From positions 89,315-153,314 of the IMG/VR virus record IMGVR_UViG_3300042398_001385: a stretch of DNA of 64,000 nucleotides; one strand, 5' to 3'. The notes beneath the pieces were generated by a model. That model saw only the letters and a program-made list of their open reading frames with translations, had not been told where the DNA came from and did not search any database. Position numbers and translations under genes: made by a program. Of the stretch, positions 39,040 through 54,986 are shown one piece after another (the stretch's first letter is position 1; every line of letters begins with the position of its first letter). Source of the DNA: a virus.

Positions 39040-40683
39040 ATGAATAGAAATTTAAAATCGTTTAACCAATTCTCTCCAGTTAATGAAAGCGTAGCTCCAG
39101 CTAAAGCATGGTTACTAAAAACAGCAGCAGAAGAGAAAAGAAGAAGATTTAAATTAGATCCGATGGAGAAAATTGAGTTTACTCCAGAGGAAGAGAAAAA
39201 AATATTAAATAATCCTAATTATGTAGAGGTTAGGGATTATTTCTTAAATACGGTTAAGAAGCCAGGTTTGGTTTATCCATTTACTTATTTTAGAATAGCA
39301 GAGAGATTACCTATGAGTGATCCTGATCCTAATGCTTTTTCCGTGGAAAATCTTTATAGAAAATATGAAGAAAACTCTCCAATGTTTTCAACCTTTCCAC
39401 TTCCTTTAGGAAATATCGATAGCTACATAAAAAGAACACCCGAGGGAGAAAGATCTTTCGAAAAATTATGGGATGATTTAGAAAATATTACATCACAAAA
39501 ACCTATAAAAGAATTCGTAGATAGATTCGTAGGTCCAATAAGAAGAGAATTTTCAGAATCTCTAAGATTAAAAGAAACAGATCCTGAAAGAGCTAGTCTT
39601 TTAGATAGACTATATCACGCGGTAACTGACCTGAAACAGCTAAAACCTCTAGTTGATGAGGAAACTAATAAAGAGGAAACTGCAGAGGATCAGTTAGTTG
39701 CTAATGGTAGTAAATATAAAGACACAAGAACATATCCAGAATTCTCAGATACTTATGTTGCTTTCAAGGAATTTGTTTTAGATTGTGAAGATAAAGTTTC
39801 GGGATGGGGATCAGGTATAACAGAATTTATAGAACTTTTAAGATCTATAGCGCCATCTATAAAAATACTATATTATAATATTGCTAAAAAAATAGTGGTA
39901 ACTTCAGCTAGATCAGCTGAAGGGATGAGAGCTGTTTGTAAAATATCAAATGCTCCATATTGTATAAGAACGGATTCAACTTTTTGGCAATATACATCAG
40001 GAAGACTACAGTTATCAATAAATCTATTAGGACTTCCTAAAACTGATGATAAATATCTAACTTCTCTTACTGTAGATCCTAACGGAAGAATTACAAGTTC
40101 TGCTAATAGAAGAAACCACTCAGTTACTAATAGAGGCTCTCAGAACTACTTAGAGCTTATGAAAGAATATGGCATCTATTCACCAGAAATAGAGGAAGCT
40201 ATAACTAAAAATTTCGATACAGAGTTAGTAATTAAAAAAATTATACAATCAATATCTCAGAAATCTGGGGGAAGCAACATAGCGTTAATACATGCACTAG
40301 GAAGTTTAGGAGTTCAAAGAGCTATAGAGGAAGGGGAATACTCTAGAGAGGAAATGGATACATTTAAAAATCTTGTAGTAACCATAATCAGAAAAGATAA
40401 CTCTATAAAATATCCAGAGGTTGTTAGCGCTTTTAATTCAGAAAAAAATGGAGGATTCTTTAGTTTAGAAGACATAGATCTATTTAAAGAACTTACTGAA
40501 GGAAAGTATGACAAAAATGATGTTATAAATATATTAAAACTAACAACGGAAGGTGTAGAAATGCTAGGATCTTTTCTAGAACAAACAAAAGATTCAGAGG
40601 ATGTTAACACAATTAAACTTGTTAAACATTTAGTTGATACTCACCCTTCAGTTATGGAATATGCTGAATCAGTTCTTCTTTAA
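39040..40683 (+). CDS. Hypothetical protein, paralogue of 37363-39024
   Basis: Same motifs; MNRNLKSFNQFSPVNE. Confidence 0.75.
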   Translation: MNRNLKSFNQFSPVNESVAPAKAWLLKTAAEEKRRRFKLDPMEKIEFTPEEEKKILNNPNYVEVRDYFLNTVKKPGLVYPFTYFRIAERLPMSDPDPNAFSVENLYRKYEENSPMFSTFPLPLGNIDSYIKRTPEGERSFEKLWDDLENITSQKPIKEFVDRFVGPIRREFSESLRLKETDPERASLLDRLYHAVTDLKQLKPLVDEETNKEETAEDQLVANGSKYKDTRTYPEFSDTYVAFKEFVLDCEDKVSGWGSGITEFIELLRSIAPSIKILYYNIAKKIVVTSARSAEGMRAVCKISNAPYCIRTDSTFWQYTSGRLQLSINLLGLPKTDDKYLTSLTVDPNGRITSSANRRNHSVTNRGSQNYLELMKEYGIYSPEIEEAITKNFDTELVIKKIIQSISQKSGGSNIALIHALGSLGVQRAIEEGEYSREEMDTFKNLVVTIIRKDNSIKYPEVVSAFNSEKNGGFFSLEDIDLFKELTEGKYDKNDVINILKLTTEGVEMLGSFLEQTKDSEDVNTIKLVKHLVDTHPSVMEYAESVLL

Positions 40684-40686
40684 TCT

Positions 40687-41175
40687 CTAATCAGGTAGAT
40701 AAGCAGTCCAGATATCCATTCCTTTAGAGAAATTCCTAATGAAATACCCATAACCAGGTTTAAATGGTTTGTGTCTCATTTTCATACCAGCTTCCTCTGG
40801 TGTTCTGTCGCCTTTTTTACTATTACATTTAGAACAACAGGTAGCTAGATTTTCCCATGTATTAATACCGCCTCTAGATTTAGGTCTAACATGATCTATA
40901 GTAAGTTGCTTCGTAGAATCGCAGTATAAGCACTTTAATTCGTCTCTCTTAAATATGTTCTCCCTAGTGGGTTTTAGCTTTTTAAATGGAAGAACAACGT
41001 ACTTTAAAAGCCTTATAACTGAGGGCCTTTTGTAAATTTTTTGATCTGTTACTATCGGATTTTCTTCATCGTGCTCTAAAACTTCAGCTTTACCTTTGTA
41101 TACAAGCTTAAATCCCCGGGCAAAATCGGTAACGCTTACAGGCGTAAAGTCATTATTTAATACTAGCACTTTCAT
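40687..41175 (-). CDS. HNH endonuclease; start corrected to 41175
   Basis: MKVLVLN, RDELKCLYC, TIDHVRPKSRGG, CNSKKG. Confidence 0.88.
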   Translation of the reverse strand: MKVLVLNNDFTPVSVTDFARGFKLVYKGKAEVLEHDEENPIVTDQKIYKRPSVIRLLKYVVLPFKKLKPTRENIFKRDELKCLYCDSTKQLTIDHVRPKSRGGINTWENLATCCSKCNSKKGDRTPEEAGMKMRHKPFKPGYGYFIRNFSKGMDIWTAYLPD

Positions 41176-41217
41176 AATCTTAAATTTTACATACTGGACA
41201 TTGTATTTATCTTTTTG

Positions 41218-41289
41218 TTTTCCCCCAAGGGTTCGAACCTCGATTCTGTGGACCAAAACCACATGTCCTGCCAATTAGACGAGAGGAAA
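41218..41289 (-). tRNA. tRNA-Gln(TTG)
   Basis: Cloverleaf; loop TTTTGGT. Confidence 0.9.
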
Positions 41290-41294
41290 ATATG

Positions 41295-41367
41295 AGCTTT
41301 TGACGGGGATCGAACCTGCGACACCTTCATTACAAGTGAAGTGCTCTACCAACTGAGCTACAAAAGC
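41295..41367 (-). tRNA. tRNA-Thr(TGT)
   Basis: Loop CTTGTAA. Confidence 0.92.
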
Positions 41368-41368
41368 A

Positions 41369-41445
41369 TGGGGTGACAGAGGGGAATCGAACCCCCGACC
41401 TTCTGAACCACAATCAGACGCTCTAACCAACTGAGCTACCGTCAC
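41369..41445 (-). tRNA. tRNA-His(GTG), CCA encoded, G-1 not encoded
   Basis: Loop TTGTGGT; C73. Confidence 0.92.
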
Positions 41446-41447
41446 AG

Positions 41448-41520
41448 TAGCGAGTGGCAGGTTCGAACTGCCGACCTTTGGGGTATGATTCCAACGCTCT
41501 ACCAACTGAGCTAACTCGCC
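41448..41520 (-). tRNA. tRNA-Met(CAT), elongator type
   Basis: Loop ATCATAC; GGCGAGT acceptor. Confidence 0.8.
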
Positions 41521-41527
41521 ATATAAG

Positions 41528-41600
41528 TGGAGTAGATGGGACTTGAACCCACATCCTCTTCCTTGCAAAGGAAGCGCTCAGCCAATTGAGCTACTACCCC
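41528..41600 (-). tRNA. tRNA-Ala(TGC)
   Basis: Loop TTTGCAA; G3:U70. Confidence 0.92.
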
Positions 41601-41601
41601 G

Positions 41602-41677
41602 TGGAGCGATAGACAGGATTCGAACCTGCGACCCCCGACTTGGAAGGACGGTGCTCTACCAACTGAGCTACTATCGC
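41602..41677 (-). tRNA. tRNA-Gly(TCC)
   Basis: Loop CTTCCAA; CCA encoded. Confidence 0.92.
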
Positions 41678-41753
41678 ATTTAGAGACGTGTGGAATTACG
41701 CATCCACTTCAACCGTCGGACTGTCCGTCTCTATATCTTACAGATACACTGTG

Positions 41754-41835
41754 TCGGAGCGGAGGGATTCGAACCCCCAATGCCGTAAGGCGGCTGATTT
41801 ACAGTCAGCTGAGCAGCCAATTGCTCAACACTCCG
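41754..41835 (-). tRNA. tRNA-Tyr(GTA) with C1:G72 and long variable arm
   Basis: Loop CTGTAAA; acceptor CGGAGTG/CGCTCCG-A. Confidence 0.88.
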
Positions 41836-41840
41836 AATTG

Positions 41841-41912
41841 CGGGGAAGGCTGGATTCGAACCAGCGACCTATCGATTAACAGTCGAGAGCTCTACCGCTG
41901 AGCTACATCCCC
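41841..41912 (-). tRNA. tRNA-Asn(GTT)
   Basis: Loop CTGTTAA. Confidence 0.9.
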
Positions 41913-41917
41913 AGTTT

Positions 41918-41999
41918 AGATTAGAGAATATTTGAGCGAGGTGTTTTTTGGTCAAATTTAAAAGTTCTGAGAAGTAACCCCATTCACCGCTTCTAATCT
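41918..41999 (-). ncRNA. GAAGCGG/TACTTC/TTCTC-family ncRNA (candidate Y-like RNA), copy inside tRNA operon 1
   Basis: Closing stem AGATTAGA/TCTAATCT; same motifs as the three copies beside the Ro60 gene. Confidence 0.7.
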
Positions 42000-42001
42000 T
42001 G

Positions 42002-42074
42002 TAGTCCCTGAGGGATTCGAACCCCCGACATTTTGGATGTAAACCAAACGCTCTACCAACTGAGCTAAGAGACT
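42002..42074 (-). tRNA. tRNA-Val(TAC)
   Basis: Loop TTTACAT. Confidence 0.9.
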
Positions 42075-42079
42075 AAATG

Positions 42080-42156
42080 TGGTTGACATAGAAGGATTCG
42101 AACCTTCGGCCTTTGACGTATCAGATCAACGCTCTAACCAACTGAGCTATATGTCA
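42080..42156 (-). tRNA. tRNA-Ile(GAT)
   Basis: Loop CTGATAC; CCA encoded. Confidence 0.9.
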
Positions 42157-42162
42157 ATGTTG

Positions 42163-42248
42163 CGGAAAGAATTGGAATCGAACCAAATACCAATTAAGGT
42201 ACGCTTCGCTTAGCAGGCGAGCCCCGTCACCATCTGAGATTACTTTCC
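42163..42248 (-). tRNA. tRNA-Ser(GCT)
   Basis: Loop CTGCTAA; long variable arm; G73. Confidence 0.88.
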
Positions 42249-42377
42249 TTTTTTTAATATTCTCTTTATTCTTTTGAGAATTTTTTTACCAGTTGTGAAA
42301 TTAATCACATCAATTCTTAGGTTTTCCCTACTTGAAGCAAAGCTTCCACTAATTACTACTTTTTCTTTTTTATTCAT
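42240..42377 (-). CDS. 45-aa basic peptide inside the tRNA operon (MNKKEKVVISG...KRILKKGK)
   Basis: Open frame filling the Cys-Ser spacer. Confidence 0.4.
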   Translation of the reverse strand: MNKKEKVVISGSFASSRENLRIDVINFTTGKKILKRIKRILKKGK

Positions 42378-42393
42378 AGGCACAATTTATTTG

Positions 42394-42464
42394 AGATCGC
42401 GACTGGAATTGAACCAGTATAGCCGGTTTTGCAGACCGTTTCCTAACCACTCGGACACGCGATC
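42394..42464 (-). tRNA. tRNA-Cys(GCA)
   Basis: Loop CTGCAAA; U73. Confidence 0.9.
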
Positions 42465-42475
42465 TTGTTTTTTAG

Positions 42476-42548
42476 AGGTTCCACCTGGATTCGAACCAGG
42501 ATCAGATCATCCGTAGTGATCCATTCTAATCCGTTGAACTATAGAACC
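42476..42548 (-). tRNA. tRNA-Arg(ACG)
   Basis: Loop CTACGGA. Confidence 0.88.
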
Positions 42549-42554
42549 TTTTTG

Positions 42555-42627
42555 CACGCCCTGTAGGAATCGAACCTACAACCTTTGGTTTTGGAGACCA
42601 ACGCTCTACCAATTGAGCTAAAGACGC
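42555..42627 (-). tRNA. tRNA-Trp(CCA)
   Basis: Loop CTCCAAA; G73. Confidence 0.9.
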
Positions 42628-42631
42628 ATTT

Positions 42632-42766
42632 AAGGAAAGATGAAGATGGTTGCGTGGACATCATCTTTTACGATTGGCTTTACTTAGGTGTATATCTCCC
42701 AACTCCGATGATCCCAGCCGATATACACTCTCATGCTATTGGAATCATCCTTCCCCAATCAACCTT
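42632..42766 (-). ncRNA. Unidentified structured RNA within tRNA operon 1
   Basis: Stems GATTGG/CCAATC, GTGTATATC/GATATACAC, AAGATG/CATCTT; closing AAGG/CCTT. Confidence 0.5.
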
Positions 42767-42768
42767 TG

Positions 42769-42842
42769 TGATCCCGCCGGGACTCGAACCCGGGACTCCC
42801 TCATTAAAAGTGAGGTGCTCTAGCCAACTGAGCTACGAGATC
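42769..42842 (-). tRNA. tRNA-Lys(TTT)
   Basis: Loop CTTTTAA. Confidence 0.92.
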
Positions 42843-42912
42843 ATTTTACTAAACCTATTTTTGTCTCACTAAACAAATGATGTTTAGTAATACAATTTCT
42901 TGTTTAGTATTG

Positions 42913-42985
42913 TGGTACCGGCCGGAATCGAACCGGCGACACCTAGATTTTCAGTCTAGTGCTCTACCGACTGAGCTACGGTACC
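42913..42985 (-). tRNA. tRNA-Phe(GAA)
   Basis: Loop CTGAAAA. Confidence 0.92.
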
Positions 42986-43014
42986 TTGGTTTTCCAGTAT
43001 GTCAAAGAACAAAT

Positions 43015-43044
43015 AAAAAAGGCTTCGAATAATCGAAGCCTTTT
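43015..43044 (-). terminator. Attenuator terminator of tRNA operon 1
   Basis: AAAAGGCTTCGA-TTAT-TCGAAGCCTTTTTT between leader and first tRNA. Confidence 0.88.
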
Positions 43045-43072
43045 CCAAAATATCTAAATATGATTTTCTGTA

Positions 43073-43180
43073 TTAGCTTCGATCGGGTTCTTTCCCCTTA
43101 GCCCAAAACGCCACCGTTTGATAGCAGCCATTAATCTGACTGTTCATGCGAATGATGTTATGTTTACTACAGTTTTTCAT
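43073..43180 (-). CDS. Leader peptide 1 (MKNCSKHNIIRMNSQINGCYQTVAFWAKGKEPDRS)
   Basis: 35-codon ORF just after the promoter; its 3' end ATCGAAGCT is complementary to the terminator 5' arm. Confidence 0.85.
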   Translation of the reverse strand: MKNCSKHNIIRMNSQINGCYQTVAFWAKGKEPDRS

Positions 43181-43192
43181 TGTTTTCTTTAT

Positions 43193-43257
43193 TATATATC
43201 TCTATTCCGATATTGTTTCACAAAATTAGAATAATTATTCCAGATAAAAAAATGATT
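43193..43257 (-). promoter_or_regulatory. Tandem promoters of tRNA operon 1 (AATCATTTTTT...TAATTTTG and GAAAC-N18-TATA)
   Basis: Both motifs recur with fixed spacing elsewhere in the window. Confidence 0.65.
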
Positions 43258-43268
43258 TTTGATATTTT

Positions 43269-43646
43269 TTAATATTCCTCTTCGATTATTTCCATTTCTT
43301 GGATTAATCCGACAGCTTCTTCACCTTCTACTTCATCCCATGAATAATCCACATTAGTAGATTCGTAAGCATTAAAGAAAGAATCTGAATTTCTTTCTAA
43401 TTGTTTTTTCATAAACGATACTATTTCATCTTCTGAATATTGACCGTTTACCATTTCTAAAGCTTCATTGTAATCAGAAATTCCTTCCTGACTTACTCCA
43501 TTCATCACATTTAAGAAAGATCCTAAAGCAAAAATAGCTGCTTCTCTTTGATCTTTTCCAATACCAACTGCTTTAAAATTTACCTGTGCATCAGGATTCT
43601 CGTGAGCTACACTCATAGTAACTCTGCTCATTTTGTTTAATTCCAT
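43269..43646 (-). CDS. Acidic hypothetical protein, probably early
   Basis: ORF; AATCTTTTTT...TACATTTA motif upstream. Confidence 0.65.
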   Translation of the reverse strand: MELNKMSRVTMSVAHENPDAQVNFKAVGIGKDQREAAIFALGSFLNVMNGVSQEGISDYNEALEMVNGQYSEDEIVSFMKKQLERNSDSFFNAYESTNVDYSWDEVEGEEAVGLIQEMEIIEEEY

Positions 43647-43715
43647 TGTAAAAGTTTTTTTAATTAGAATGTAAATGTAGGAATTAAATTACAGGGGAAA
43701 AAAAGATTTTATTAA

Positions 43716-44234
43716 TTAAATTAAAAATTTAATAATTTTATCCTTAATTCCTGACTGTTTTATCCCCTCATTATAAGGTTTGGTAGTCATTACAAAGTTT
43801 TCTAGTTTAGAAAGATTCATATCATCTACTGCCACCCAATGTGTTACCTCTGGATGGTTTTTAAGCCATTCTTTAATCTCTGTAAAACGAATAGCTTCGT
43901 AAAGATTTTTCCATTTGAAAAGTCCAAAACCATTCTCGTCGAAATCTTTCATATTAGGTGTAAGATCAATTGGGGGTTTAATTCCACGGGTAACATACAT
44001 CTTTTTCATTTGTTCAAGATTACCCCAGTTTTTCCAATCGGAAGAAATAACAATCTCGCATCCTGTTTCTTCGATAATTTGATTTAGAACTTTAACAGCT
44101 TTAGAATCAAAGCTATCCATTCGAATATCCAAAGGGGTTTCTGGGTTACTATCGTATCCCTTCTTTTTGAATCGTCCTCCCCATTGTGAGGAAAGACAGA
44201 TTACTCCATCATGATCTAAAAATAAAACTTTCAT
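43716..44234 (-). CDS. HAD-superfamily phosphatase (Swiss-army-knife RNA-repair HAD type); start corrected to 44234
   Basis: FLDHDGV, ISSDW, EIKEWL, VAVDD motifs. Confidence 0.78.
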   Translation of the reverse strand: MKVLFLDHDGVICLSSQWGGRFKKKGYDSNPETPLDIRMDSFDSKAVKVLNQIIEETGCEIVISSDWKNWGNLEQMKKMYVTRGIKPPIDLTPNMKDFDENGFGLFKWKNLYEAIRFTEIKEWLKNHPEVTHWVAVDDMNLSKLENFVMTTKPYNEGIKQSGIKDKIIKFLI

Positions 44235-44235
44235 G

Positions 44236-44309
44236 TGGTCCCTCACGGGCTCGAACCGTGGACCTACTGATTATGAGTCAGTTGCTCTAACCTGCTGAGC
44301 TAAGGGACC
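44236..44309 (-). tRNA. tRNA-Ile2(CAT), lysidine type
   Basis: Loop CTCATAA; GGTCCCT acceptor; near-identical to 49153-49226. Confidence 0.8.
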
Positions 44310-44315
44310 TTTTTG

Positions 44316-44395
44316 TACCTTCGGAGAGACTCGAACTCTCACGCTTTCGCACTAGATCCTAAGTCTAGCGTGTCTACCAATTCCACCACGAAGGC
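44316..44395 (-). tRNA. tRNA-Leu(TAG)
   Basis: Loop CTTAGGA; variable arm. Confidence 0.92.
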
Positions 44396-44401
44396 ATTTA
44401 G

Positions 44402-44474
<73 letters not shown>

Positions 44475-44480
44475 ATATTG

Positions 44481-44554
44481 CGGTCCTAGCGGGACTCGAA
44501 CCCGCGATCTCCGCCGTGACAGGGCGGCGTCCACTCCAACTGGACTGTAGGACC
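44481..44554 (-). tRNA. tRNA-Asp(GTC)
   Basis: Loop CTGTCAC; G73. Confidence 0.92.
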
Positions 44555-44640
44555 AATTTGTTACTTATTCTCCTACCCTTTTATTTCGTAACCAACCTGC
44601 TTATCTTTAAATACGAGTTTCTCAAGGGTACAGGTTGTAG

Positions 44641-44712
44641 TAGTCGGTACGGGATTCGAACCCGTGTGACAAGGATGAAAACCTTGTATCCTGACCCCTA
44701 GATGAACCGACC
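44641..44712 (-). tRNA. tRNA-Glu(TTC)
   Basis: Loop TTTTCAT. Confidence 0.92.
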
Positions 44713-44834
44713 ATAAAAAAGGAATAAGGCAGGACCTACGCTCTGTCTTGCATTCCATCTCAAGAGCTGCCTAATACCAGTGGGTTAGTGGTTACCTTAT
44801 TCCTAATTTCAATATTTCAAAGAGCGTATAAAAC

Positions 44835-44863
44835 AAAAAAACCTCTGAGGTTATCAGAGGTTT
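44835..44863 (-). terminator. Attenuator terminator of tRNA operon 2
   Basis: AAACCTCTGA-TAACC-TCAGAGGTTTTTTT. Confidence 0.88.
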
Positions 44864-44884
44864 AAATTATATCGTTATATTAAT

Positions 44885-44974
44885 TTAATTCCTCTGACAC
44901 TTAAATCTATCCTCTAGAAGTGAATCTTCTTTACGAAGAGTAAAATCTGTTGCGATATTTAAAAAGTGTTTCAT
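44885..44974 (-). CDS. Leader peptide 2 (MKHFLNIATDFTLRKEDSLLEDRFKCQRN)
   Basis: 29-codon ORF; its 3' end TCAGAGG is complementary to the terminator 5' arm CCTCTGA. Confidence 0.8.
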   Translation of the reverse strand: MKHFLNIATDFTLRKEDSLLEDRFKCQRN

Positions 44975-44999
44975 TGAAAGTTTTGTTCCTTTTTTATTA

Positions 45000-45026
45000 T
45001 ATACTCCAAAAGTACAGAAAAGTTTC
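45000..45026 (-). promoter_or_regulatory. GAAAC-N18-TATA promoter of tRNA operon 2
   Basis: Recurrent motif. Confidence 0.65.
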
Positions 45027-45062
45027 CTATTTAAAAAACGATTTCCTGAATTTTTTTATTTT

Positions 45063-45602
45063 TTATCCTCCTACTCCTATAGCAGCATAGGTATCAGCTA
45101 TTTTTTTGATCCCGTCGAATAATCTTTTTTTCTGTCCTTCCCATCTAGAATCACCCGTATTAATAGCTTTAACTAATACTGGAGGAAGAGCATTAGTAAT
45201 GTTTTCCATCGTGATATCATATATTTTATTTTGTGAAGGGAACAATTTAATTTTTTTGTCTTTAGGATCAGGAGCTAAATATATGTCTATATTTTTTTCT
45301 GTCCCTCCTGCAGTTGTTTTTAATCTCACTGCAATACCGTTTCCTGTAGATTTTGGTGCTTCCATTTGACTAGCAATAGATGCTGATTCAACTAATATAG
45401 CTGGACTCCCCTTAATAGGAAAATAAAGAGGATTAAGCTTTCCAGCAGAGTCTTTAACTTCACTAACAAATAGTTTGCCGAGTAAATCTTTTTGTTGACT
45501 TATATAAGTTTCCAATTTCTTTTTAAACTCCTCTGGTGAAGCAGCCTCGTTTACATTAAGATTCTCGGATAGGAATAAATCGAATGTTAGGATATTTTTC
45601 AT
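45063..45602 (-). CDS. Hypothetical protein with shared N-terminal motif
   Basis: MKNILTFDLFLSENLNVNE; start corrected. Confidence 0.7.
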   Translation of the reverse strand: MKNILTFDLFLSENLNVNEAASPEEFKKKLETYISQQKDLLGKLFVSEVKDSAGKLNPLYFPIKGSPAILVESASIASQMEAPKSTGNGIAVRLKTTAGGTEKNIDIYLAPDPKDKKIKLFPSQNKIYDITMENITNALPPVLVKAINTGDSRWEGQKKRLFDGIKKIADTYAAIGVGG

Positions 45603-45613
45603 TTTAATTTTTT

Positions 45614-45892
45614 TTATAAATTCCAAGCTGGGTTAGCAACTATTAGAATGCCATTTTCTACTCTAGGAATAGGTTTAGTTGAATAAACATCATCATATTC
45701 TATTTGGTCTGGGTAGAATTTTTGTCCTTGGAACATGATGTAGTTTTCTTCATCTTTACCTCTGTGGCTCCATCCTTGTCCTCTCATAGAATCGTGAGCT
45801 GCATCATCAACTGTTGGTCTGCCAAAGAGAGCATCCCAGAATCCCTCGTTTACTTTTTCAGAGAATGATTCAAATTCAAATATATGTTTCAT
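45614..45892 (-). CDS. Hypothetical protein with shared N-terminal motif
   Basis: MKHIFEFESFSEKVNE; start corrected. Confidence 0.7.
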   Translation of the reverse strand: MKHIFEFESFSEKVNEGFWDALFGRPTVDDAAHDSMRGQGWSHRGKDEENYIMFQGQKFYPDQIEYDDVYSTKPIPRVENGILIVANPAWNL

Positions 45893-45905
45893 TTTGTTTT
45901 TTATT

Positions 45906-46262
45906 TTAAAGCATATTAGATAAAATGTGATAAAGACTATCGCATTCATAATCCATATCGCTTAATTCTAAATTTCTTCCGTTGTACATTATAGTTGATT
46001 CATTAGTATCAACAGTAACAGATTTTCCAATAATCCAAGCTACTATTACACCAGGTTTAATCTCTCTGACGTTTTCAACAAAGGATTTATCAGGAAATCC
46101 TGATGGGTCTTTATATCCAATAGCTCTATAAATGCTGTCCAGTGATGCTCGATCTTCTTTTTTTTCGTATCCAATAAATCTTTTTCCAGCACTTACTGCT
46201 TTTTGAAGCAGAGAAGGTTTTTTAAACTGATTAAAATCCTCGAATATTTTTAGGTGCTTCAT
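45906..46262 (-). CDS. Hypothetical protein with shared N-terminal motif
   Basis: MKHLKIFEDF; GATATATA at 46276-46283. Confidence 0.7.
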   Translation of the reverse strand: MKHLKIFEDFNQFKKPSLLQKAVSAGKRFIGYEKKEDRASLDSIYRAIGYKDPSGFPDKSFVENVREIKPGVIVAWIIGKSVTVDTNESTIMYNGRNLELSDMDYECDSLYHILSNML

Positions 46263-46282
46263 TTATTTTTTTATTTATATAT

Positions 46283-46702
46283 CTATAGTATTCCTTGAGA
46301 TCTTAGAAATTGGTAGATAGAATCAGAATTTTCCTCTGCCCACGTTATAGCTATTTCCTCTATATCTACACCTTTATATGTTAAATCTGTTCCGTGTATT
46401 TCTAGAGATAGGTGCATAGATTCGTGCATAATCAATAAAACGTCCTTATATCCATTACCTAACCGAGTAGCATTTAAAAATAAAAAGAGCTTGTTGTGAT
46501 CATCCGGATAAACATTACATAATCCTGCTATATAAGCATTAGTTGGATTATCGTAACAGTCTTTCTTATAAAGACCATGTAGTTCTTCTACACCAAAAAA
46601 ATTAAATATATCTTCGGACTTTTTCCCTATTATTAGAGTATATTCGGGATATTGCTTTGTAATTATTCCTGATATATCGAAATATGATAGTTTTTTAATC
46701 AT
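46283..46702 (-). CDS. HExxH metallopeptidase-like protein
   Basis: IMHESMH followed by EE. Confidence 0.55.
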   Translation of the reverse strand: MIKKLSYFDISGIITKQYPEYTLIIGKKSEDIFNFFGVEELHGLYKKDCYDNPTNAYIAGLCNVYPDDHNKLFLFLNATRLGNGYKDVLLIMHESMHLSLEIHGTDLTYKGVDIEEIAITWAEENSDSIYQFLRSQGIL

Positions 46703-46712
46703 ATTATTCTAA

Positions 46713-48326
46713 TTATAATTCAAGCATGTCATAAACGTCCTTATATCCGTACTTTTTAGCCCCTCTATTCATTGCTATTAGATATGATCCAATGTTTAAA
46801 AGATCAGGAAATACTGGACTGTCTACTAATCTATCAGCTATCTTACCGGCAGCTTCTTCCCATTCTGGGCTTTCTTTCTTTTTAATAATAATATCCTGTA
46901 AAATTTCTAGTTCTTTACGGTTATCCTGGAGGAACTTTCCTATCCATGAAGTTTTAAACGCTTGCTTTATGTCGAACAGTAGGTACTTATTGAAATAGTA
47001 ATACTCACCTATGTATTCATTGCTCCTTTTAGCCATAACTTCTTTTTGTTCTGGAGTTCCGTAACTGTATCGTTCAGGTCTTGTGTATTCAGGGTGAGAC
47101 TCAAAATCTCTATCTAACTCAGATTCTAATTTATTCGGATCCCATGAATCCATACTTAACGCGTGTTCATCCGAATTATTCCAAATGAAACCTGCAGTCT
47201 CATCGAACTGTTTCATTGAAAATTTAGGAGTAGCTATGATCTTGCAAACCATCGTCATGTATCGTAAGTAGTTGCGCACAACTTCTTTGTCGAAAGGATC
47301 TTCTGTATGATCATTTGATAAATATTTCACACAAGCTTTCAAGTAATCTTTGCTGAATCCTCTATGAGCTTGGTACTCCTGTTCTTCTTTCTTGATGTCC
47401 AAGTTTTTGTACTGAGATCTTTTAATCTTCCCTAGACTCATAAAATCTTCCCAGTTCGTTTGTCCCTTCTCAAGATTGTACCATTTAGAACCCCAGTGTA
47501 GTCCACTTTTTCTGATGTCTTCCCTGTCTTGTAAATCTCTCATCTCACTGTCAAGATTATCATCGGTTGAGTAGTGAGAGCCCCCACTAAACGTAGTGTA
47601 GCCCATAGCTTCTATCGCATTGTTGGCATCTTGCAGCTCGTAATCGACAATATCTCCTTTTATCTTCAAGAAATAAATTTGGTTTCTGTTCTCAGCTGTT
47701 TTAGACACAAACTCCCTAACTTCTTCCTCTGCTTCAGGTAAGTAAAGAACTACTGTACCGTCAGACACTACCAAGCTCTTGTCATAGTAAGTGTCTATAG
47801 CAAAGAGACTGGCAGGTTTTCCGTTAGTCTTGATCATAGATTCTCCGGGCATCAAGTAGATGTACTTGTTACCTGTCCAGTTTCCACCTGAGTGAGAAGA
47901 AACTACGTGGTTCAACGTAAAGTGTTTTGTCCATCTGGTGGAATGAGCATCTATCATCCATTTTCTAAAAGTTTCAAAGTCCTTGTAGTGAGGTTCTTCC
48001 TTTATCCATGTATTTTCAGGGTCGTTGATGTCATCATTGTACTTCTTCTTGAGGTACTTCTCGAAAGAGTCATTGAAGCCTACGCTCTTTAGAGCTTTTC
48101 CTGTGTGAAGTATCATATCTTTACCACGAAGTGTGGGAAGCTCATCTGAGGATCTAATAAAAACTAAGTTCTTCCAATCAATAGCTACTATACCATCTTC
48201 CTTAAAATCCAGTTTGTCCACAGGTTCTCCAACTTTAGGTAATTCACTAATATTATTAATTATTTTAGAAGCTTTTGATAGGTATTCAAAAACAAACTCT
48301 TCGAATAATTTTATGTACTTTTTCAT
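46713..48326 (-). CDS. Hypothetical protein with shared N-terminal motif
   Basis: MKKYIKLFEEFVFE; GATATATA at 48333-48340. Confidence 0.75.
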   Translation of the reverse strand: MKKYIKLFEEFVFEYLSKASKIINNISELPKVGEPVDKLDFKEDGIVAIDWKNLVFIRSSDELPTLRGKDMILHTGKALKSVGFNDSFEKYLKKKYNDDINDPENTWIKEEPHYKDFETFRKWMIDAHSTRWTKHFTLNHVVSSHSGGNWTGNKYIYLMPGESMIKTNGKPASLFAIDTYYDKSLVVSDGTVVLYLPEAEEEVREFVSKTAENRNQIYFLKIKGDIVDYELQDANNAIEAMGYTTFSGGSHYSTDDNLDSEMRDLQDREDIRKSGLHWGSKWYNLEKGQTNWEDFMSLGKIKRSQYKNLDIKKEEQEYQAHRGFSKDYLKACVKYLSNDHTEDPFDKEVVRNYLRYMTMVCKIIATPKFSMKQFDETAGFIWNNSDEHALSMDSWDPNKLESELDRDFESHPEYTRPERYSYGTPEQKEVMAKRSNEYIGEYYYFNKYLLFDIKQAFKTSWIGKFLQDNRKELEILQDIIIKKKESPEWEEAAGKIADRLVDSPVFPDLLNIGSYLIAMNRGAKKYGYKDVYDMLEL

Positions 48327-48364
48327 ATACGTTATATATCTCGTTTATTTAGATATATAGTAGT

Positions 48365-48937
48365 ATGAAGTATATTAAACTATTTGAGGGATTTGATACA
48401 AATAATAATCCCACATCGATAACATTAGAGATACTTCCTGGATTCTACAATAGAATGAAAGAATCTAATGGAACTGTAACAGATGGAAGTTATGGATATC
48501 CTGATCCTAAAAATATACAGTTGTTCGATGGGAGTACTGATTTTAAAGAGAATTATAATCTTTGTTACGTAGCTAGATTAAATTCCAAATCTGAATATAA
48601 CTACGGAGGATCTGTATCTATTTGGATTAGTTATAGAAGAGACATTGCAGAGATTTCAATGTACGAGTCTATATTTGACTTTGATACTAATAGAAAATTA
48701 ATGGATTATGCTTCAGGTTTACCTAACACATCCCCAATTTATAAGGGATTATGGAAGGATACAAATCAGGATAACATAGAATATAACAGGAGATTAATGC
48801 CAAAGGATACACTATCAAGAGTTAGAAGAGAAGAATGGAACTTCTTTAATCCTACTGGATATTGCAAATTTGAAGATGGCGTAGAACCAGGTAAAACCGA
48901 TCACCGAGGATACTTCAGAATTAAAGAGGTTAAGTAA
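48365..48937 (+). CDS. Hypothetical protein with shared N-terminal motif
   Basis: MKYIKLFEGF; GATATATA at 48352-48359. Confidence 0.75.
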   Translation: MKYIKLFEGFDTNNNPTSITLEILPGFYNRMKESNGTVTDGSYGYPDPKNIQLFDGSTDFKENYNLCYVARLNSKSEYNYGGSVSIWISYRRDIAEISMYESIFDFDTNRKLMDYASGLPNTSPIYKGLWKDTNQDNIEYNRRLMPKDTLSRVRREEWNFFNPTGYCKFEDGVEPGKTDHRGYFRIKEVK

Positions 48938-48951
48938 AAAAATCTAAAAAG

Positions 48952-49054
48952 TACAAGAGGTTGGACTTGAACCAACATGAACTTTCGTTCTCGGGCATGA
49001 CACCCTAGCGTCTATCCATCGGATCATAAATGAACTCGCTTCCGCCACTCTTAT
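48952..49054 (-). ncRNA. Atypical tRNA-like RNA (Leu-type body, D-loop insertion, non-canonical anticodon loop TGTCATG)
   Basis: Acceptor ATAAGAG/CTCTTGT-A; T-arm GTTGG-TTCAAGT-CCAAC; variable arm GAAC-GAAA-GTTC. Confidence 0.65.
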
Positions 49055-49059
49055 ATTTG

Positions 49060-49143
49060 TACCCGGAGAGGGACTTGAACCCTCACGACCAAATGGCCAA
49101 CAGATTTTAAGTCTGTCTTGTCTACCTATTCCAACATCCGGGC
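49060..49143 (-). tRNA. tRNA-Leu(TAA)
   Basis: Loop CTTAAAA. Confidence 0.92.
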
Positions 49144-49152
49144 AGACTTTTG

Positions 49153-49226
49153 TGGTCCCTCACGGGCTCGAACCGTGGACCTACTGATTATGAGTCAGTT
49201 GCTCTAACCTACTGAGCTAAGGGACC
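49153..49226 (-). tRNA. tRNA-Ile2(CAT), lysidine type
   Basis: Loop CTCATAA; differs by 1 nt from 44236-44309. Confidence 0.8.
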
Positions 49227-49230
49227 TAAG

Positions 49231-49304
49231 TAGAGACGACGAGAGTCGAACTCGTGACCGCATGCGTATAAGGCATGTGCTCTAACCAATTGAGCTACGC
49301 CTCT
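49231..49304 (-). tRNA. tRNA-Ile(TAT)
   Basis: Anticodon arm CATGC-CTTATAC-GCATG; A73. Confidence 0.85.
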
Positions 49305-49311
49305 ATGGCTG

Positions 49312-49384
49312 TCGGGATACCAGGACTCGAACCTGGGGCCTCCTGGTCCCAAACCAGGCGATCTACCAACTGATCTACATCCCG
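49312..49384 (-). tRNA. tRNA-Pro(TGG)
   Basis: Loop TTTGGGA; CGGGATG acceptor. Confidence 0.92.
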
Positions 49385-49551
49385 AAATTGTATGTCTTTA
49401 AGTATCACCAGAACATACAAACTGTGCCAACCAACGATTTGGAGAATAAGTGTGCATAACATTAAAGAATACCAAGGTATCCTACCTGTCTACGGTGTAG
49501 AGGCCTATTCCATCTTCGATCCATGCCCAGCGCTAGGCAGAGGGATTTGTG

Positions 49552-49625
49552 TGATCCGAGCAGGATTCGAACCTGCGACCTACTGCTTAGAAGGCAGTTG
49601 CTCTATCCAGCTGAGCTATCGGACC
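49552..49625 (-). tRNA. tRNA-Arg(TCT)
   Basis: Loop CTTCTAA. Confidence 0.92.
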
Positions 49626-49628
49626 AAA

Positions 49629-49717
49629 TGGCGGAGAGGGCGAGATTCGAACTCGCGGTAGCTTTCACTACGTCGGTTTTCAAGACCGGTGCATTAAACC
49701 AACTCTGCCACCTCTCC
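49629..49717 (-). tRNA. tRNA-Ser(TGA)
   Basis: Loop CTTGAAA; long variable arm; CCA encoded. Confidence 0.92.
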
Positions 49718-49742
49718 AATTCATCATTATTTCAAAGACCAT

Positions 49743-49777
49743 AAAAAAACCGGGACTTTTAAAGGTCCCGGTTTTTT
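49743..49777 (-). terminator. Attenuator terminator of tRNA operon 3
   Basis: AAAAAACCGGGAC-CTTTAAAA-GTCCCGGTTTTTTT. Confidence 0.9.
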
Positions 49778-49798
49778 AGTTTATAGTTATAGTTAAAA

Positions 49799-49873
49799 CT
49801 AACACAGGACCTTTAGAGATCGTCTTATCGACGGTCTTAATATTATAGGTAATATGTTAAGTGTTTTGTTCAT
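49799..49873 (-). CDS. Leader peptide 3 (MNKTLNILPIILRPSIRRSLKVLC)
   Basis: 24-codon ORF; TAAAGGTCC near its end is complementary to GGACCTTTA in the terminator. Confidence 0.85.
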   Translation of the reverse strand: MNKTLNILPIILRPSIRRSLKVLC

Positions 49874-49881
49874 TTAAGTAT

Positions 49882-49946
49882 TATATATCGTTCCTTTTGT
49901 TTTGTTTCACAAATATAGATCTTTTATATTGATAAAAAAAATGATT
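49882..49946 (-). promoter_or_regulatory. Tandem promoters of tRNA operon 3 (AATCATTTTTT...TATATTTG and GAAAC-N18-TATA)
   Basis: Same layout as upstream of leader 1. Confidence 0.65.
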
Positions 49947-49959
49947 ATGTGGATTAATT

Positions 49960-50451
49960 TTAAAAATTAATTTGTTTTTTAATCTTTTCAATGATATAAT
50001 TTGAAAGATCTGTTTTATCTGAATAATCTAATTTATGTTTGCTAATAAACATGCTTATTTTATTCTTTATATCTCTTTTTATATCATTAGTTAATGTATC
50101 AATCTCATTAGAAAGACTATTATAAAGAGAGGCTCTTTTATAATCTCTAATAGTATCAGGATCGAGGCCATTATAATATTTTTCGATATCTGAATTATCC
50201 ATTTTACCAGCATTTATAGCCATAGTTATAATCTCAGTAAAAAAATCTCCATTTAGTTTTCCTTCTTTAACCATAGATCCAATAACAGAAATAAAGTGGT
50301 AAAGATCATCCTTATCTCCTTTATCGATTACACCTTTTGCAAGTGCTAAAATCCCTGAAGGAGTCATTGACTCAATCATTTTAGGTGTAAGTCCAGCAAG
50401 TTTTTGTGAATATGGAGTGCTATACTCTTCGAATAAATTTATATGCTTCAT
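49960..50451 (-). CDS. Hypothetical protein with shared N-terminal motif
   Basis: MKHINLFEEY. Confidence 0.7.
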   Translation of the reverse strand: MKHINLFEEYSTPYSQKLAGLTPKMIESMTPSGILALAKGVIDKGDKDDLYHFISVIGSMVKEGKLNGDFFTEIITMAINAGKMDNSDIEKYYNGLDPDTIRDYKRASLYNSLSNEIDTLTNDIKRDIKNKISMFISKHKLDYSDKTDLSNYIIEKIKKQINF

Positions 50452-50492
50452 TATATTTATATTATTTATCTATATCTATATATCTATATATT

Positions 50493-51422
50493 TCAATTAA
50501 TTCTTTTTTTACCTGCTATAGAATCCCATATGTTTCTACTTTTTGTAGCTATGGCTTTTCCCGTTGGTGCTAATCTATCCTGTACTGTTTTAAGAGCGTC
50601 TTGTGTGTCTTTCTTTAATCTAGCGCCAAACACATTTCCTTTTCTTATCCCCTTATCGATCATTTGTGTCATTTTTTCCATTCCATCATCAATAGTTTTG
50701 TTAATAGGAACTTTAAGATTGTCTAATGTATTTTGACACACTTTATAAAAGTCTTCTATATTTTGTCCTATATTAATTGATTTTACACCAACCTCTTTTG
50801 CTGTACCATAAACACAAGAACTTAAAAATTCAGGTATTGTTTTAAATGATGAAGTCGATGATTTATAAGATCCTACAGTTAATACTGATACAGCCTCTGA
50901 AGCTTTTGGCGAAGATTCTGCTAATTTATAAAGATCTTTAAGAACCATTTTAAATAATCCGGATGAATCTTCCTTCATACTATTAAAGGTCTCTTCTCCT
51001 TTATCAGTGTAATATTTATTTATTCTGCTAAAAGTGTATATAACGCTTAATCCTGCTGTGATTTCTCCTTCTTTAACATAAGAAAAAATAGACGAAGCTA
51101 GAGTCATTATTCCGTCTGCAACTGCTTCAGAAACAACATATATCCCGTCAGGCGTAAAAACTAGGGTCTTATCTTTTTTTTCTGCTATTTTTAAAAGCGT
51201 AGCTCCTATCTTCTTATTACTTTCATTAATTGAATCAGCATAAGCTTTCATTCCGCTTCCTACACACAAGAAATTATATTCCCTCCCGCTTATAGTTGTA
51301 GTTTTTACATCTTTTAATGTTCTATACAGAAGTTTATTATCTATATCAAACAGTTTTGATTTACTGTCTGTAATTTCGCTTTCAAATAAAACGAAATCAT
51401 TAAAGTCTAAAATCTTATTCAT
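50493..51422 (-). CDS. Hypothetical protein with shared N-terminal motif
   Basis: MNKILDFNDFVLFE. Confidence 0.7.
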   Translation of the reverse strand: MNKILDFNDFVLFESEITDSKSKLFDIDNKLLYRTLKDVKTTTISGREYNFLCVGSGMKAYADSINESNKKIGATLLKIAEKKDKTLVFTPDGIYVVSEAVADGIMTLASSIFSYVKEGEITAGLSVIYTFSRINKYYTDKGEETFNSMKEDSSGLFKMVLKDLYKLAESSPKASEAVSVLTVGSYKSSTSSFKTIPEFLSSCVYGTAKEVGVKSINIGQNIEDFYKVCQNTLDNLKVPINKTIDDGMEKMTQMIDKGIRKGNVFGARLKKDTQDALKTVQDRLAPTGKAIATKSRNIWDSIAGKKRIN

Positions 51423-52141: not shown

Positions 52142-52161
52142 TTTTTTATATTATATATCTC

Positions 52162-54939: not shown

Positions 54940-54986
54940 TGTTAAAGAACGTTTTATTAATATATTGCAAATTTAGATAAAGTTTC
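54940..54986 (-). promoter_or_regulatory. GAAAC-N17-TATA promoter plus boxA (GTTCTTTAACA) for the ncRNA cluster
   Basis: Matches to the recurrent promoter motif and to the boxA consensus. Confidence 0.65.

Follow-up and report, generated by a model that had tools for sequence, protein, structure and literature searches.

How does a phage decide when to make its own tRNAs? To our knowledge, the control of phage tRNA genes is essentially unknown, and the function of the tRNAs themselves (codon compensation or escape from tRNA-cleaving defences) is debated. The question is raised by a stretch of 64,000 nucleotides (nt) of viral DNA, hereafter the window, which is the right-hand 64 kilobases (kb) of the 153-kb IMG/VR record IMGVR_UViG_3300042398_001385 (positions 89,315 to 153,314; estimated completeness 53%). 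The source is a freshwater giant phage, and the window sequence was recovered in lake and freshwater metagenomes. A megablast search of positions 41000-50000 against 50,697 deposited phage genomes returned tRNA-sized matches only and no relative. The 153-kb record contains 27 tRNA genes, all on the minus strand and all within three operons, which jointly serve all 20 amino acids. In front of operon 1, a short reading frame (leader 1) is followed by an intrinsic terminator, and the amino acids of this frame mirror the 16 tRNAs that lie behind the terminator. We analysed this arrangement and concluded that leader 1 is probably a ribosome-mediated transcription attenuator, which senses the supply of the 16 tRNAs of its own operon. 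Leader 1 and its control elements, the boxA-like sites, the tRNA operons, and the HNH and HAD genes described below lie on the minus strand.

Codons 1-30 of leader 1 use exactly the amino acids of operon 1

Leader 1 is an open reading frame (ORF) of 35 codons and a TAA stop at 43073-43180, which starts with ATG and encodes MKNCSKHNIIRMNSQINGCYQTVAFWAKGKEPDRS. Operon 1 was located at 41217-42985 by ARAGORN and Rfam and begins 29 nt past the T run of the terminator. The set of tRNAs comprised Phe, Lys, Trp, Arg(ACG), Cys, Ser(GCT), Ile(GAT), Val, Asn, Tyr, Gly, Ala, Met, His, Thr, and Gln. ARAGORN with default settings found 15 of them at 42985-41217 and missed tRNA-Ser(GCT), which was recovered as the 16th tRNA at 42162-42248 with the relaxed threshold of -ps95. 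The Rfam match of tRNA-Ser(GCT) was 38.3 bits to the tRNA-Sec model, below the gathering score, and its position was kept in the relatives L005, L046, L047, and L049.

An earlier note on this DNA had claimed that codons 1-30 of the leader sample exactly the amino acids of operon 1. The ORF at 43180-43073 and the ARAGORN predictions, with the 16th tRNA at the relaxed threshold, confirmed this claim for the window. Codons 1-30 (43091-43180), the putative sensing zone, used exactly M, K, N, C, S, H, I, R, Q, G, Y, T, V, A, F, and W. Leu was absent throughout, as had been stated, and Glu, Pro, and Asp, which had been described as occurring only late, were confined to codons 31-33. The tail of the ORF, codons 31-35 (E P D R S; 43076-43090), showed no restriction to the tRNA set. 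Leu, Glu, Asp, and Pro, the four amino acids missing from the zone, are the very ones for which only operons 2 and 3 supply tRNAs. The match extended to the choice of codons. In the split boxes, Ser was written as AGT/AGT, Arg as CGC, and Ile as ATC/ATT/ATT, all of which were cognate to the encoded isoacceptors in agreement with the earlier note; CGN makes up only 6% of the Arg codons in the genes of the phage. Strict wobble pairing made 25 of the 27 codons cognate, and all 27 were cognate if U34 reads four-fold boxes.

The probability that 30 codons contain exactly these 16 amino acids was calculated to be 6e-7 with the proteome composition and 1.5e-5 with the base composition. A simulation that allowed any prefix length of at least 20 gave 1 match per 2,000,000. 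The exact set of 16 was found in none of 14,716 real 30-residue segments of phage proteins, and leader 1 was the only one of the 229 small ORFs in the window to show it. The choice of codon 30 as the end of the zone could be seen as post hoc; an independent rule, the start of the antiterminator strand (see below) minus the ribosome footprint, placed the end at codon 28-30 and answers this point.

Related contigs were gathered via two neighbouring genes, whole-record tRNA searches, and a back-translated leader pattern. Leader 1 was present at 12 homologous loci, and its frame was open in all 12 of them. In eight aligned copies, 11 of 109 sites were variable in the ORF versus 57 of 111 upstream, and the variable ORF sites per codon position 1/2/3 were 0/2/7. 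Synonymous changes among the homologues kept the same tRNA, and the replacements (I to N or T, N to I or K) remained within the set.

The match recurs with other leaders and other tRNA sets

Eleven leader/operon pairs from six related contigs were compared, in which the zone was defined as running from codon 2 up to the final codon at which a ribosome, with that codon in its A site, does not yet cover the antiterminator. The divergent relatives L044, L021 (two units), L052 (two), L055 (two), and L051 carried different leader peptides before differently composed arrays. In-set codons made up 193 of the 230 zone codons (84%) versus 52.5% expected, and 48.5% in the ORF tails. The amino acids of an operon were represented in its own zone in 108 of 112 cases, and 200,000 simulations gave a random mean of 72.6 and a maximum of 89. 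The table of tRNA in operon against residue in zone was [[79,29],[8,104]], with an odds ratio of 35. Cys, Trp, Asp, Val, and Leu occurred in the zone if and only if their tRNA occurred in the operon. When the operons were permuted among the leaders, the observed count was reached in 0 of 20,000 permutations. Swaps of leaders within a genome abolished the match; in L021, for example, it fell from 13/14 and 18/20 with the own operons to 2/14 and 3/20. The signal was also specific to the reading frame, since 84% of the codons were in set in frame 1 versus 52% and 45% in the other frames, with 0, 17, and 27 stops, respectively.

The codons followed the same rule. Strict-wobble cognate codons accounted for 75% of the zones versus 37% expected, and for 39% of the tails. 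In the split boxes of Ser, Arg, Leu, and Ile, the encoded isoacceptor was matched by 35 of 41 codons versus 19.2 expected, which was reached in 0 of 200,000 simulations. The zones over-used rare NNG codons read by the U34 tRNAs of the operons (39 versus 17.6 expected), as counted at 43073-43180, 44885-44974, and 49799-49873 of the window and in the leaders of L021, L044, L051, L052, and L055. TCG was used 9 times versus once for TCA, and CCG 5 times versus 0 for CCA; the genes of the phage favour TCA and CCA about 5-6 fold. This over-use may tune the sensitivity of the leaders or reflect constraints of RNA structure. Rare codons in the leu leader are known to raise its sensitivity to tRNA concentration, and by analogy the rare NNG codons would heighten the sensitivity of decoding to tRNA concentration here.

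No unit of leader and terminator was seen in the more distant relatives that were scanned (L025, L040-L043, and L058-L064; 46-58% identity of the HAD protein described below), and therefore the device is not universal in the clade. Candidate Met and Pro tRNAs called in L055 by ARAGORN at -ps90 had no Rfam support and were left out; they would improve the match.

A terminator and its complement at the end of the ORF

An intrinsic terminator was found at 43015-43042, with a G+C-containing stem of 10 base pairs (bp; 12-13 bp with an A-U extension), a 4-nt loop, and a T6 run. A terminator scan placed it at 43047-43014, and the perfect hairpin had a free energy of -15.1 kcal/mol. The hairpin was separated from the leader ORF by a 30-nt spacer. 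The stem was 100% paired in eight homologues and included one compensatory change from a C-G to a U-A pair. The putative antiterminator strand GATCGAAGCT (43075-43084) consists of the last ORF codons and the first base of the stop. The earlier note had proposed that the end of the ORF can pair with the terminator arm, and the pairing was found as a 10-bp helix, including two G-U pairs, between GATCGAAGCT (43084-43075) and GGCTTCGATT (43040-43031), which lies in the terminator 5' arm and loop. The length of this helix was equalled in 21 of 1000 shuffles, and 97.5% of it was paired in the eight homologues. The local folds of leader 1 had free energies of -17.7 kcal/mol for the antiterminator versus -15.1 for the terminator.

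All 11 leaders had a strong intrinsic terminator 25-45 nt past the end of the ORF. In 10 of the 11, a run of 8-10 contiguous nt in the last quarter of the ORF was complementary to the terminator 5' arm (P 0.002-0.05 per leader versus dinucleotide shuffles). L051 had no contiguous antiterminator, and its local fold contained an interrupted helix. Across the leaders, the local antiterminator fold (-12 to -22 kcal/mol) was as stable as the terminator (-11 to -19). The strand and the terminator arm changed together between the homologous leaders L052-A/L055-A and L052-B/L055-B, the co-changing strand/arm pairs being TGGTTCAG/CTGAACCA versus TGGTTCGG/CCGAACCA and GGAGAAGG/CCTTCTCC versus GGAGATGG/CCATCTCC. 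Support for the proposed antiterminator comes mainly from this re-creation in divergent leaders.

The informative folds for such a switch are those of the nascent RNA before the terminator 3' arm is made, and these were calculated with a 28-nt ribosome mask. In nascent leader 1, the terminator 5' arm was sequestered when the A site held any of codons 2-29 and was partly freed at codon 30. With the ribosome on codons 31-33, the antiterminator was masked and 0-3 nt of the arm were still paired; the arm was free at codons 32-33. The footprint boundary at codons 29-30, which ends the sensing zone in these folds, coincided with the first out-of-set residue, E31. The nascent RNA without a ribosome also folded into the antiterminator. 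Readthrough is therefore predicted as the default, and for termination a ribosome would have to reach the end of the ORF in time.

A boxA-like motif, GTTCTTTGACA, was located at 43000-43010 between the terminator and the first tRNA. The motif G[T/C/G]TCTTT[G/A]A[A/C]A followed the terminators of all three operons, and its position was conserved in the relatives. Sites in the window were at 43000-43010, 44815-44825, 49730-49740, and 54940-54950, a count that was not above chance (4 versus 2.6 in shuffles). The motif lay 4-14 nt from the first tRNA in the relatives and for this reason cannot be the -35 box of that tRNA.

Predicted transcription and translation of the leader

A promoter-like region at 43191-43224 contained a TTTG/TGAAAC box (43224-43215) and TATATAAT (43198-43191) and ended 10 nt before the ATG. 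Both elements were conserved blocks amid variable flanks in eight homologues, from which we infer a promoter function, and the region upstream of leader 1 was not detected as a sigma-70 promoter. The motif TATATAA[T/A/C] preceded the ATG of many minus-strand genes, and of each of the three leaders, by 2-21 nt; examples were at 52157, 49887, 48338, 46281, 45003, 43198, 30231, 23263, 13351, and 12769. Such placement points to a class of phage promoters from which leaderless or near-leaderless mRNAs start. A Shine-Dalgarno-like motif was present in only 6 of the 65 long ORFs of the window, and the start regions were A-rich and G-poor. The A-rich start region of leader 1 is normal here because the phage genes are generally without Shine-Dalgarno motifs, and leader 1 looks like a normal, nearly leaderless gene of the phage. 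Bacteroidota-type promoters (TTTG ... TAnnTTTG) were found in the relatives L021 and L025, and the host is probably a member of the Bacteroidota.

The distance from the terminator U-run to the first tRNA was 29 nt (to tRNA-Phe) in operon 1 and 14-27 nt in the relatives. No promoter was found in this interval in operon 1 of the window or in the relatives, and the interior of operon 1 contained neither a promoter motif nor a terminator. The interval is too short to accommodate a promoter, and the tRNAs must therefore be transcribed through the terminator. Weak hints came from metatranscriptomes, whose contigs cover small shares and allow neither depth, strand, nor true ends to be read. One contig covered the leader and its terminator (43182-43015), reaching from 2 nt ahead of the ATG to where the U-run ends, and a further 6 letters past 43015 did not align; the flanking protein genes were without cover in that run, and uncovered parts carry no meaning in these data. 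Another contig ran from inside the ORF across the terminator and into tRNA-Phe and tRNA-Lys.

Proposed mechanism and alternatives

We infer translation of the leader, a race between ribosome and polymerase, and the direction of the response as follows. The phage promoter just upstream would start a nearly leaderless mRNA, and ribosomes would translate the 35-codon ORF. The RNA past the ORF would adopt one of two exclusive states, the antiterminator, formed by the last codons and the terminator 5' arm, or the terminator hairpin with its U-run, and the latter would stop RNA polymerase 29 nt short of tRNA-Phe. When decoding is fast, the ribosome would reach codons 31-36 before the terminator is synthesized and would cover the antiterminator strand, with termination and no tRNA as the result. 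A delay of the ribosome at any of codons 2-30 would let the antiterminator form first, and the polymerase would enter the 16 tRNA genes. The codons of the zone are read by these 16 tRNAs only, and therefore a delay of the ribosome would report the supply of exactly those tRNAs. Accumulated phage tRNAs would exert negative feedback on the operon, and induction would occur when host tRNAs run short owing to codon demand, host shut-off, or tRNA-cleaving defence systems. The core of the earlier note, a translated leader that mirrors the tRNAs downstream combined with a terminator/antiterminator switch, is supported at the level of sequence by the different leaders before different tRNA sets. The note had further described the leader as a multi-input OR gate. 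The many inputs were retained in our model and the strict OR was not; a kinetic race that sums delays over all codons fits the anatomy better. The untranslated RNA already folds into the antiterminator.

Several findings weigh against attenuation by tRNA supply. One is L046 (record G016, L046:6400-8000), in which the leader was nearly unchanged but 9 of the 16 tRNAs were absent from the operon. Operon 1 of L046 retained only Phe, Arg, Cys, Ser, Ile, Thr, and Gln, no replacement for the nine lost tRNAs was found in its 115-kb record, and operon 2 was wholly absent. The deletion may be recent, or the leader may not depend on each of the tRNAs downstream. The exact match, as true as it is of leader 1 in the window, is not universal. 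Most amino acids occur only once or twice in the leaders. The leaders offer single codons where classical attenuators use runs, and it is therefore doubtful that they would respond to a mild shortage of one tRNA. The association of Met with Met tRNAs was poor, codons 2-5 were often out of set in the 11 leaders, and leader 2 of the window matched its own operon weakly (8/20, P about 0.1). The P values of the comparison are not exact and overstate independence because the 11 pairs are phylogenetically related; the swap within a genome and the frame controls do not rely on the independence of the pairs. In the close homologues of leader 1, the changes in the antiterminator were one-sided, without double compensation. 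In the predicted fold of L021-A, the antiterminator would stay uncovered when the ribosome is at the stop codon. Finally, the complete leader at equilibrium always gave the terminator fold, with or without a ribosome mask. Equilibrium folds consequently cannot discriminate the two states, and the attenuation model depends on kinetics. Classical attenuators likewise yield the terminator when the full leader is folded at equilibrium.

Could the leader report general translation capacity, such as ribosome availability, initiation, or the global elongation rate, and not how much of each specific tRNA is available? In that case the match in codons would be a by-product, for example of a leader written only in codons that the phage can always decode. 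The switch architecture would indeed answer any delay of the ribosome, one codon per amino acid makes a poor specific sensor, and L046 retains its leader after the loss of nine tRNAs. However, a sensor of general capacity needs no operon-specific composition, yet leaders of the same genome partition the amino acids in the way their operons do. They also pick the isoacceptor-specific box for Ser, Arg, Leu, and Ile and favour the rare NNG codons read by the U34 tRNAs of the operon. We consider this explanation unlikely, although it is the least unlikely of the alternatives.

A reversed polarity, in which efficient translation of the leader promotes readthrough as a positive feedback and stalling causes termination, is quite improbable. 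Attenuators in which a closely following ribosome suppresses termination exist, pyrBI being an example, and the antiterminator of L021-A would be free again with the ribosome at the stop codon. The leader ORFs, though, end 25-45 nt before the terminator, so that a ribosome cannot mask the terminator itself, and in 10 of the 11 leaders the antiterminator is the only strand covered by a terminating ribosome.

We give even less credence to a switch made of RNA only, which would bind a protein, a tRNA, or a metabolite in the manner of a T-box, with the open frame being incidental. The pair of terminator and antiterminator is by itself compatible with a riboswitch-type mechanism, and the leader is highly conserved at the nucleotide level. 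Against this, no Rfam family, T-box included, matched at threshold, the signal is frame-specific with variation by codon position of 0/2/7, and distant relatives encode the same rule with different sequences. The promoter, ORF, and terminator also make up a complete small gene, and the kinship of the 11 pairs inflates the statistics, but an independent small-protein gene with its own terminator, leaving the tRNAs to constitutive leak-through and the match to chance or shared ancestry, is just as hard to believe given a chance of about 1e-6 for leader 1 alone, the fit of unrelated leader sequences to different tRNA sets, and the constant presence of a terminator-arm complement in the ORF tail.

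The tRNA operons and their neighbours

Operon 2 (44712-44235) encodes tRNAs for Glu and Asp, an initiator-like Met tRNA, Leu(TAG), and an Ile2-like CAU tRNA. Operon 3 (49717-49059) encodes Ser(TGA), Arg(TCT), Pro, Ile(TAT), an Ile2-like CAU tRNA, and Leu(TAA). The CAU tRNAs of these two operons (44235-44309 and 49152-49226) differed by 1 nt and resembled lysidine-type tRNA-Ile2, an assignment that we presume from their likeness to E. coli ileX. A tRNA-Ile(UAU) is also present in operon 3, and leader 3 contains four ATA codons.

Two unusually long spacers were found in operon 1 (42240-42383 and 42628-42767), neither of which contained a tRNA or an Rfam match. One of the long spacers contained a Lys-rich ORF of 47 codons just upstream of tRNA-Ser(GCT). 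An HNH endonuclease ORF (Pfam HNH_5, E 1e-16) lay at 40687-41274, directly behind the last tRNA of operon 1, and its longest ORF call ran into tRNA-Gln. The tRNA arrays of the relatives had many gaps of 0.4-1.1 kb, which are perhaps insertions of homing endonucleases. The ORFs at 45906-46262, 46713-48326, 48365-48937, 49960-50451, 45614-45949, and 39040-40683 shared a similar N-terminal motif, MK-[HYK]-[IL]-K-[LI]-F-E-[DE]-[FY]. They were otherwise unrelated and had no Pfam match; the motif may be a shared N-terminal module or a targeting signal.

The gene between operon 2 and leader 1 (43716-44246) encodes a protein with a HAD_SAK_2 domain (E 1e-23), the HAD domain of the "Swiss Army Knife" RNA repair proteins. 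It had 43 relatives on viral contigs with 46-89% identity. A wider reading of the cluster, which we put forward only tentatively and regard as less probable than not, is that the leaders are codon-resolved sensors of tRNA loss, in which a single hungry codon would induce the matching block of replacements. Depletion by host defence nucleases or by phage-induced host shut-off would trigger the switch. Together with the division of all 20 amino acids among the three operons and the RNA-repair-type HAD phosphatase inside the cluster, the leaders might then form an inducible module of counter-defence and tRNA homeostasis that is widespread in freshwater giant phages of Bacteroidota.

Significance and comparison with known systems

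If attenuation by tRNA supply is correct, leader 1 would represent the first description of feedback control over tRNA genes; with its relatives, it would also exceed all known attenuators in multivalency, with up to 16 inputs. The model predicts that slow decoding of the matching codons induces the synthesis of phage tRNAs. The leaders would offer a natural, compact, and reprogrammable sensor of decoding speed for chosen codons. They could also serve annotation, as the leader peptide largely predicts the tRNAs that follow and vice versa, which would help to delimit transcription units in uncultured phages.

Phage tRNA clusters of the T4/T5-like kind are made as polycistronic precursors, and a strong constitutive promoter has been described for them (PMC11555353). 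Phage tRNAs replace host tRNAs that have been destroyed by defence nucleases (PMC10264068, PMC11555353). Neither of these papers describes a leader ORF, an attenuator, or a feedback. A full-text search of the literature found no leader peptide or attenuator before tRNA genes, although absence from such a search is not proof. What appears to be new here is the target, namely tRNA genes, the sampling of up to 16 amino acids a few times each, and the partition of amino acids among leaders in step with the operons.

Searches with the models of known leaders gave subthreshold or no matches. The Phe_leader model (RF01859) scored 26.9 bits at 43013-43077 and the Thr_leader model (RF00506) 29.7 bits at 49740-49848, both below the gathering score of 55, and the T-box model (RF00230) had no match in 40500-50500 even at E<=1. 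T-boxes resemble the phage leaders in that they lie ahead of translation-related genes, sense the status of tRNA, and switch between a terminator and an antiterminator. A T-box, however, binds one uncharged tRNA directly and without translation, whereas the signal in the phage is specific to the reading frame. The single-amino-acid attenuators trpL, hisL, pheL, and leuL, as well as pheM, the leader of pheST, belong to the same class of mechanism as that proposed here, but the composition of the phage leaders is diverse and not repetitive. In pheM, the leader peptide couples a gene of the translation apparatus to the supply of charged tRNA.

The earlier note had contrasted leader 1 with classical attenuators that repeat one amino acid. 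This contrast was overdrawn, since the leaders of thr (thrL; Thr and Ile) and ilvGMEDA (Leu/Val/Ile) are multivalent, as is that of ilvBN (Val/Leu). These three are the closest systems in design, and pheM/pheST and the T-boxes the closest in purpose. Like thrL, ilvGMEDA, and ilvBN, the phage leaders have a short ORF just after the promoter with control codons for more than one amino acid. They share with them an intrinsic terminator and an exclusive antiterminator that would be covered once a ribosome arrives at the last codons, so that stalling would lead to readthrough. There are also differences. The phage leaders would control tRNAs and not biosynthetic enzymes, and they sample up to 16 amino acids once or twice instead of using runs of two or three kinds. 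The known leaders are enterobacterial, whereas the host of the phage is probably a member of the Bacteroidota and its mRNA would be near-leaderless and without a Shine-Dalgarno motif. Unlike the three multivalent leaders, those of the phage have no evident 1:2 "protector" hairpin, and for this reason an untranslated leader RNA is predicted to read through. Because multivalent attenuators are textbook cases, the phage leaders would be the extreme of a known design.

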